Source of the DNA: an uncultured Gemmatimonadales bacterium
Lineage (GTDB): Bacteria > Gemmatimonadota > Gemmatimonadetes > Gemmatimonadales > GWC2-71-9
NCBI GenBank assembly: GCA_963828735.1
Contig: CAWHFW010000002.1
Location: 384,001-448,000, forward strand
DNA: 64,000 bases
Reading direction: 5' to 3'
Shown here: positions 12,747 through 12,910 of the stretch, one piece after another
Layout of the letters: every line of letters starts with the position of its first letter
Numbering within the stretch: position 1 is the first letter of the stretch
Notes under the pieces: model-generated
Databases searched by the model: none
What the model was told of the DNA's origin: nothing
What the model saw: only the letters and a program-made list of their open reading frames with translations
Position numbers and translations under genes: made by a program

Positions 12747-12845
12747 ATGCGGCCTCGCGCGAGCTGCTGTCGAATGATGCCCTACTGCCCCTGTCCGGGG
12801 TGGACGGCGTCATCGGCGCATGCGCGTGGAAGCGGCGGGGTCTAA
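12747..12845 (+). CDS. Putative 32-aa Cys/Met-rich leader peptide MRPRASCCRMMPYCPCPGWTASSAHARGSGGV
   Basis: Hand translation; 4 Cys and 2 Met within a 10-codon core; stop lies 20 nt before a terminator; upstream of Met biosynthesis genes. Confidence 0.65.
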   Translation: MRPRASCCRMMPYCPCPGWTASSAHARGSGGV

Positions 12846-12865
12846 CCTCCGCAACCCGGCACCCC

Positions 12866-12910
12866 GAGGCCCGGACCACTCACTGAGCGGTCCGGGCCTC
12901 ATCGTTTTCC
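12866..12910 (+). terminator. Intrinsic terminator (attenuator) ahead of metY
   Basis: GAGGCCCGGACC (12866-77)/GGTCCGGGCCTC (12889-900) 12-bp stem followed by ATCGTTTTCC. Confidence 0.75.

Follow-up and report, generated by a model that had tools for sequence, protein, structure and literature searches.

Two putative transcription termination switches in series, a SAM-II-type motif and a Cys/Met mini-ORF, ahead of metY in an uncultured Gemmatimonadales bacterium

Described leaders and the metY leader

Leader-peptide attenuation is a textbook mechanism for several amino acids, and dual-amino-acid control is found in the thr and ilv leaders. In attenuators of the trp/his type, as outlined in PMC1183508, a leader ORF carries control codons for the product of the pathway, three helices (1:2, 2:3 and 3:4) can form, and a terminator precedes the first gene; when the leader goes untranslated, termination is the expected outcome, which that source calls super-attenuation. 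The leader analysed here, located upstream of metY, has the same predicted organization, but its putative control codons specify Met and Cys, and a putative riboswitch stands in series with it. Judged by its predicted anatomy, it would work like a trp/his-type attenuator: leader ORF, enriched codons and exclusive helices are present, the U tract is imperfect, and an effect of ribosome position shows in nascent-RNA folding but not in full-length equilibrium folding.

Cysteine codons have been implicated in the control of sulfur genes in two other settings. The uORFC-8-2 motif, predicted before cysS in Rhodobacterales (PMC8632094), also combines a putative uORF containing Cys codons with an intrinsic terminator; as described there, it differs from the metY leader in that it involves Cys only, belongs to another gene and another phylum, and is not accompanied by a riboswitch. 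In mycobacteria, stalling at the Cys codons of leaderless poly-Cys sORFs controls sulfur genes, as experiments reported in bioRxiv 10.1101/834739 indicate. Some relatives of the present leader (genus g51 and the cysH leaders discussed below) are apparently leaderless too; the mycobacterial sORFs differ, however, in acting on translation by occlusion of the Shine-Dalgarno sequence (SD), and have neither terminator nor Met codons in the accounts of bioRxiv 10.1101/834739 and PMC1262725. For Actinobacteria, PMC1262725 found no RNA element upstream of the met operons.

A functional parallel is provided by SAM-I/T-box(Met) tandems that precede metX and metY (PMC9481103), which stand before the same genes and for which the same logic, low SAM plus uncharged Met-tRNA, is predicted. 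In the metY leader a SAM-II-type aptamer would take the place of SAM-I and a translating ribosome that of the T-box, and a Cys input would be added; the main text of PMC9481103 mentions neither leader peptides, attenuation nor uORFs. With SAM-II and SAM-V the upstream motif shares an H-type pseudoknot, a UUU/UUGC/CUAAA core, a promoter just before P1 and met genes downstream (PMC1273637; PMC6061858; PMC9373788). A terminator-like hairpin follows P2, comparable to the terminator of most SAM-II (PMC1273637; PMC9373788), and a P3 hairpin follows P1, an element that, according to PMC6061858, SAM-V has and SAM-II lacks.

Our main reading, to which we give a probability of roughly 0.7, is that two transcription stop switches are arranged in series, the SAM-II-type motif first and the Cys/Met mini-ORF attenuator second. 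Expression of the operon would then likely require both low SAM and a shortage of charged Cys- or Met-tRNA. The type of mechanism is known; what appears to be new is the use of Met and Cys control codons together, in series with a SAM switch. The main texts searched yielded no Met-codon attenuator, no Met/Cys metY leader and no tandem of SAM-II with a leader peptide. A prior description is possible; the SAM-II variants of PMC2864571, for example, are placed in its Additional File 1.

Methionine is an awkward signal for attenuation, as translation of the leader itself begins with Met, and without that translation termination would be expected. The chief conceptual obstacle is that lack of Met could stop initiation and so favour termination (PMC1183508); the model requires the elongator tRNA to discharge first. 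Our literature search found no bacterial paper that compares how far initiator and elongator tRNA are charged. A natural Met-codon attenuator, if this is one, would make it possible to test whether elongator Met-tRNA is depleted before initiator tRNA. It would also offer a terminator-type cysteine attenuator for testing, together with a SAM aptamer variant missing from Rfam, and a logic gate, composed of a riboswitch and an attenuator, that would be equivalent to SAM-I/T-box(Met) while using other parts.

The metY locus and its SAM-II-type motif

The window is a stretch of 64,000 nucleotides (assembly GCA_963828735.1, contig CAWHFW010000002.1, positions 384,001 to 448,000), and positions are given within it. 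The leader is bounded by yajQ (minus strand, 11988-12491) and metY, and the following features define the operon:

12564-12592, plus strand: predicted sigma-70-type promoter, TTGACA-17-TAGTCT (from the sequence)
12918-12923, plus strand: metY SD, GAGGAG, outside the terminator hairpin (from the sequence; conserved in the alignment)
12930-14258, plus strand: metY, O-acetylhomoserine sulfhydrylase / cysteine synthase family (TIGR01326, 656.8 bits against a cut-off of 495.1)
14255-15325, plus strand: aspartate-kinase-like ORF, overlapping the metY stop (TIGR00657, E 7e-54, under cut-off)
15416-15823, plus strand: small carbonic-anhydrase-like ORF (PF00484, above cut-off)
15820-16854, plus strand: metX-like homoserine O-acetyltransferase (TIGR01392, E 1e-93, under cut-off)

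The carbonic-anhydrase-like gene lies inside the met operon, and its end overlaps the beginning of metX. Transcription would begin near 12599-12600. A consensus promoter scan of the window gave no match at 12564-12592; TTGACA is kept in 18 of 19 same-genus leaders, the single miss being a leader truncated by its contig. No separate metY promoter was seen by eye.

The reaction of MetY combines sulfide with O-acetylhomoserine; cysteine synthases belong to the same family (TIGR01326 family description). Since profile searches of the genome gave nothing above cut-off for cysE (TIGR01172), while cysK was above cut-off and a cystathionine-beta-synthase-like gene just below it, a link of MetY to cysteine supply in this host is plausible.

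The attenuator itself is, as far as the sequence indicates, the second half of the leader only: upstream of it stands a SAM-II-type aptamer followed by a terminator-like hairpin, an element that the preliminary description of this DNA, centred on the mini-ORF, did not contain. Its parts are as follows:

12601-12677, plus strand: SAM-II-type aptamer variant, with P1 12601-06/12628-33, third strand 12609-13, P2a 12616-18/12675-77, P2b 12622-25/12667-71 and an inserted variable P3 hairpin 12634-56
12673-12698, plus strand: predicted antiterminator 1, aptamer 3' strand 12673-80 with terminator-1 segment 12690-98 (duplex -14.5 kcal/mol)
12686-12723, plus strand: terminator-like hairpin 1, stem 12686-93/12706-13, imperfect U tail

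The aptamer begins straight after the promoter. At its site RF00521 gave no match in the window (E<=5) or in the genome search (E<=10), and neither RF01726 (SAM-II long loops) nor RF01826 (SAM-V) detects it. Homologues without P3, located before metY in other families, score 40.5 to 45.8 bits on RF00521, above cut-off, and have their core in common with it; a regular expression for this core finds three sites in the genome, namely the present aptamer and two Rfam-positive SAM-II. As the Rfam models pass the aptamer over and P3 is present, we class it as a variant of SAM-II. The two Rfam-positive copies (L117, G000:C3:79140-79213, minus strand; L118, G000:C5:1246023-1246092, plus strand) each have a terminator-like hairpin and precede a threonine-synthase-like and a metH-like ORF, respectively, both named by eye.

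In an alignment-free tally of 64 aptamers, the P1 core had all five pairs intact in every case, UUGC and GCUAAA were each found in 63, and P3 in 47, this one included. P2a reads GGC:GCC in 47 and CGC:GCG in 16, these two-sided changes splitting only two clades. On alignment A2 the aptamer pair count came to 76.2%, a value reached by 422 of 500 shuffles, with P1 one base off register and nine P3-less rows misaligned by MAFFT. The ligand-contacting nucleotides named for SAM-V in PMC6061858 (U9, U10, U19, U20, U47, A48, A49 and A50) are all kept, as U12612, U12613, U12622, U12623, U12669, A12670, A12671 and A12672. At 12611, the first position of the UUU run, this genome alone has C (1 of 64; U in the other 63). 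The nucleotide at that position is presumably placed near the SAM adenine.

What comes after the aptamer is a terminator-like hairpin, as opposed to the SD and gene start of the SAM-V translational platform. Its tail has 5 U in 8 nt, and at least 5 are found in 37 of 47 family leaders. The antiterminator 1 duplex ranges from -11.0 to -15.6 kcal/mol in 38 of 39 P3-type leaders. We propose that the SAM-bound pseudoknot would remove 12673-77 from antiterminator 1, so that terminator 1 forms; without bound SAM, the aptamer 3' strand 12673-80 would pair with 12690-98 and terminator 1 would be blocked. A 68-codon ORF at 12680-12886, whose stop lies in the second terminator's loop, was considered as a gene controlled by the aptamer and rejected: neither its ATG nor its frame is conserved, and it has no Pfam match.

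The Cys/Met leader ORF and its helices

On transcripts that pass terminator 1, a ribosome is expected to translate the mini-ORF. The preliminary description placed this ORF between ATG 12747 and TAA 12845, and it is indeed there, with the translation MRPRASCCRMMPYCPCPGWTASSAHARGSGGV. Pairing figures in the list below were counted on alignment A1 (44 family members) and are overstated, because this leader supplied the structures and the members compared are kin:

12747-12845, plus strand: leader ORF of 32 codons; Cys7, Cys8, Met10, Met11, Cys14 and Cys16 are the control codons (12765-12794)
12765-12820, plus strand: helix 1:2, predicted anti-antiterminator, control codons 12765-91 with 12797-12820 (76.8% paired, 53 compensatory cells)
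12798-12881, plus strand: helix 2:3, predicted antiterminator, 12798-12816 with 12864-12881 (87.4% paired)
12866-12910, plus strand: helix 3:4, terminator-like hairpin 2 of 12 bp, imperfect U tail (93.5% of cells paired, 34 compensatory cells)

The SD upstream of ATG 12747 is weak, start positions vary, and an in-frame GTG at 12717 is an alternative start that would give 42 aa. The clustering of Cys and Met stood up to examination: six Cys or Met in ten codons were not reached once when the leader was dinucleotide-shuffled 3000 times and the best of its three frames was taken. Comparable clusters close to a stop codon occur at 49 places genome-wide, and at 8 of these a hairpin follows. The pattern by itself is therefore not unique, and the case rests on the position before metY and on conservation. 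Conservation of the ORF and its cluster, on which the preliminary description had made its reading depend, was found: a Cys-rich ORF is present in 69 of 86 metY leaders, from 18 genera, and its stop lies 12 to 43 nt (median 25) before the terminator. As for synonymous variation, proposed there as a check, both Cys codons are in use (124 TGT, 110 TGC).

In this survey the frame was picked by Cys count only, the rule being at least two Cys in ten codons and a stop ahead of the terminator; it chose a wrong frame for L084 and passed over L069, which has one Cys. Met was then scored separately from the residue used for selection. Of the 254 other residues that lie between a leader's first Cys and its last, 79 are Met, or 25 of 61 when one leader per genus is counted; the background is 1.6% in long ORFs of the genome and 2.9% in the tails of the leaders. 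Such an inner Met is present in 55 of the 69 leaders and in 13 of 18 genera, which suggests selection for Met itself. Other common residues of the cluster are Arg, Pro and Ile (53, 36 and 27).

One rival reading is that the attenuator might sense cysteine only, its Met codons being alternative starts or letters of helix 1:2, with the SAM switch alone reading methionine. Cys, being the selection rule, is always present, while 14 of the 69 leaders lack an inner Met; AUGAUG pairs in helix 1:2 in the present leader, an ATG often stands directly ahead of the first Cys, and lack of Met may block initiation. On the other hand, an inner Met cannot be the initiator if Cys codons upstream of it are read. 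Inner Met exceeds background about 20-fold, and its positions shift across lineages along with differing versions of segment 2. Off-frame ATG is moreover rare in the cluster zone (0.7% and 4.5%, against 31% per codon in frame, at genus level), and three leaders (L069, L079 and L088) are mostly Met with one or two Cys. We consider a Cys-only attenuator unlikely, and keep Met and Cys as joint inputs in what follows.

The second terminator had been given as a 12-bp structure at 12866-12910. The stem holds (12866-12877 with 12889-12900), and the segment 12855-12915 folds at -32.8 kcal/mol (z -6.3), a stability reached by none of 200 shuffles; the tail at 12901-12910, however, is imperfect, and a consensus terminator scan makes no call there. 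Counted from the last G-C stack it has 5 U in 8 nt, within a family range of 3 to 8; at least 5 are found in 49 of 68 members, and many distant members have long U tracts.

The three helices 1:2, 2:3 and 3:4 are mutually exclusive and, by comparison of the leaders, conserved. For each of them, none of 500 shuffles gave as many paired cells, and slid registers reached at most 60%. Helix 2:3 has four pairs changed on both sides, with slid registers at 32 to 59%, and its covariation is modest (9 cells). The preliminary description had proposed other antiterminators, pairing 12793-99 with 12870-76 and 12796-802 with 12860-66. These segments are complementary at those coordinates, but among 44 relatives only 63.5% and 74.6% of cells are paired, values equalled by 190 and 193 of 500 shuffles, so that we do not retain them in that role. 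One of the two pairings shows up in the predicted fold of this leader for stalls at Met10 and Met11, and may help locally here. Without recourse to an alignment, the segment that pairs best with the terminator arm begins at a median distance of 14 nt from the last Cys codon, measured downstream from that codon's first base (quartiles 12 to 16), which is about the edge of a ribosome footprint. The z-score of the arm-partner duplex is below 0 in 61 of 66 leaders and below -2 in just 31 of them.

The second step of the model would thus proceed as follows. A ribosome reaching the stop of the mini-ORF would cover segment 2, and hairpin 3:4 would halt transcription. A ribosome stalled at the Cys/Met codons would cover segment 1 only; segment 2 would then take the 5' arm of the terminator, and once helix 2:3 had formed RNA polymerase would go on into metY. 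Taken together, the conserved ORF, the Cys codons, the inner Met and helix 2:3 argue for the ribosome-stalling Cys+Met attenuator that was initially suggested.

We simulated folding of the nascent RNA with a ribosome masking 12 nt beyond the A-site codon. As medians of 68 leaders, the terminator arm was sequestered at 0.79 to 0.82 with the ribosome on Cys (0.82 at the last Cys), at 0.40 four codons further on, at 0.31 with the ribosome at the stop and at 0.50 without a ribosome. Shuffling segment 2 lowered sequestration to 0.59, and the observed value exceeded the shuffle mean in 59 of 65 cases. In the leader of this genome the arm was sequestered at 0.82 to 0.86 solely for stalls at codons 12 to 14, at 0.45 to 0.56 for Cys7, Cys8, Met10 and Met11, and at 0.36 at the stop; without a ribosome the value was 0.72 or 0.37, according to the starting point of the fold.

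This weaker simulated switching from Cys7 to Met11, together with the unique U-to-C change in the aptamer, the interrupted U tails and the loss of either module in some relatives, could mean that the elements are real in the lineage and partly decayed here, leaving a leader that is leaky or single-input. We find this quite improbable: the ORF is intact, with four Cys and two inner Met, all helices are intact, and the tails are within the family range. Part of the leader region is also carried by 22 RNA runs, of which eight were examined (contigs only, depth 2 to 5, most of the leader covered), and near-identical contigs from the RNA libraries of other soils retain the ORF start and the terminator region. 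No contig among the eight runs spans position 12611. Some bridge terminator 2 into metY and could be read-through RNA or DNA; as the contigs carry no information on ends, strand or level, they speak neither for nor against termination.

A further reading does without a terminator/antiterminator switch. The ORF might act through a general coupling to the speed of translation, through Rho polarity or through decay of the mRNA, and the hairpin would then serve for pausing or stability. The imperfect U tail would fit this, and so would full-length equilibrium folding, in which the terminator core pair is favoured at every ribosome position by a median of 6.1 to 6.2 kcal/mol (a measure that saturates), so that any switching must be kinetic; mycobacterial poly-Cys leaders, too, affect translation and not termination, according to bioRxiv 10.1101/834739. 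We nevertheless hold this to be very improbable, given that helix 2:3 is conserved at footprint distance, that distant members have long U tracts and that the metY SD lies outside the hairpin.

As to the peptide itself, the order of Cys and Met varies by lineage (CCRMMPC, CCRICMC, CMMMC, CMTMRMTTC), and the tail is not conserved, with a change of frame past the cluster in L005 and early stops in L010 and L033; changing order and a variable tail would fit codon sensing and not a functional peptide. That the product is nevertheless a functional Cys/Met-rich small peptide (for example metal-binding) with the hairpin merely as its terminator, as four Cys in 32 aa and the presence in the genome of one more short Cys-rich ORF, equipped with a good SD and a terminator, might suggest, is scarcely credible, since the peptide has no Pfam or NCBIfam match, varies in order, length and tail frame, and is encoded always before metY, for which no promoter of its own was seen by eye.

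Distribution of the modules and other leaders

For the comparative counts, metY was searched in 61 relatives and in 401 genomes of the phylum, 115 of which have a match at E<=1e-110. Upstream DNA was taken from the top loci and 60 more, and the tally comprises 88 leaders, 86 of them with a terminator call. Left out of it were L009, whose contig begins within the gene, the distant paralogues L024-L030, and L097-L116; a screen of the latter, 20 homologues with 50 to 61% identity, showed no such leader. In family f10, three of these (L097, L098 and L100) share another motif upstream of metY, with no Rfam match at E<=0.5.

Both modules are present in at least 49 of the 88 leaders (10 genera), the aptamer only in 15 and neither in 3, as determined by regular expression, with L069 assigned by hand. 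The attenuator only is found in 21, which is an overcount, as L066 and L068 have sub-threshold RF00521 matches and L007 is truncated. Among single-module relatives, L051 and L062 have the SAM module only, L005 and genus g51 the attenuator only, and L063 only a terminator remnant. This occurrence of leaders with one module or both indicates that the modules are gained and lost separately.

Two leaders of genus g33, L051 and L063, kept the hairpin of terminator 2 without a mini-ORF, L051 retaining the aptamer and L063 being without it; on the sequence evidence they are a snapshot of module decay. In genus g13, the metY leaders L021, L070, L074, L077, L078, L082, L083, L085-L087 and L096 have an extra conserved motif about 150 to 250 nt upstream of SAM-II, which consists of a long stem with a variable hairpin followed by a terminator-like hairpin; no convincing Rfam match was found in L021 or in five others scanned.

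A second Cys/Met leader of this genome lies before cysH-cysI (approximately L130:4692-4870, minus strand; G000:C5, stop at 1754194). It has a promoter, an apparently leaderless ORF of 35 codons with MACCCM, and a clean terminator with a long U tract. Each of the 13 cysH loci closest to it (L131-L143) has a Cys-rich ORF with a hairpin, as do about 19 of the 30 loci overall, and at the cysH loci L144 and L145 a SAM-II motif stands in place of the Cys-rich ORF. A wider reading, which we judge to have slightly better than even chances, is that a stalling attenuator reading Met and Cys exists throughout the phylum, in series with a hybrid SAM-II/SAM-V riboswitch that Rfam misses. The whole would form a gate with three inputs (SAM, Met-tRNA and Cys-tRNA), its modules being gained or lost independently and exchanged before metY and cysH.

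Elsewhere in the genome, a 27-codon Cys-rich ORF with a good SD and a terminator, metallothionein-like by eye, was noted on the plus strand (G000:C6, stop at 75557). A Leu/Val-rich leader ORF with a terminator precedes a leuA-like gene, named by eye (G000:C5, stop at 284888, minus strand). This leader contains no inner Met, which provides a single negative control, and its sequence shows classical attenuation anatomy, as predicted from ORF and terminator, in this organism.
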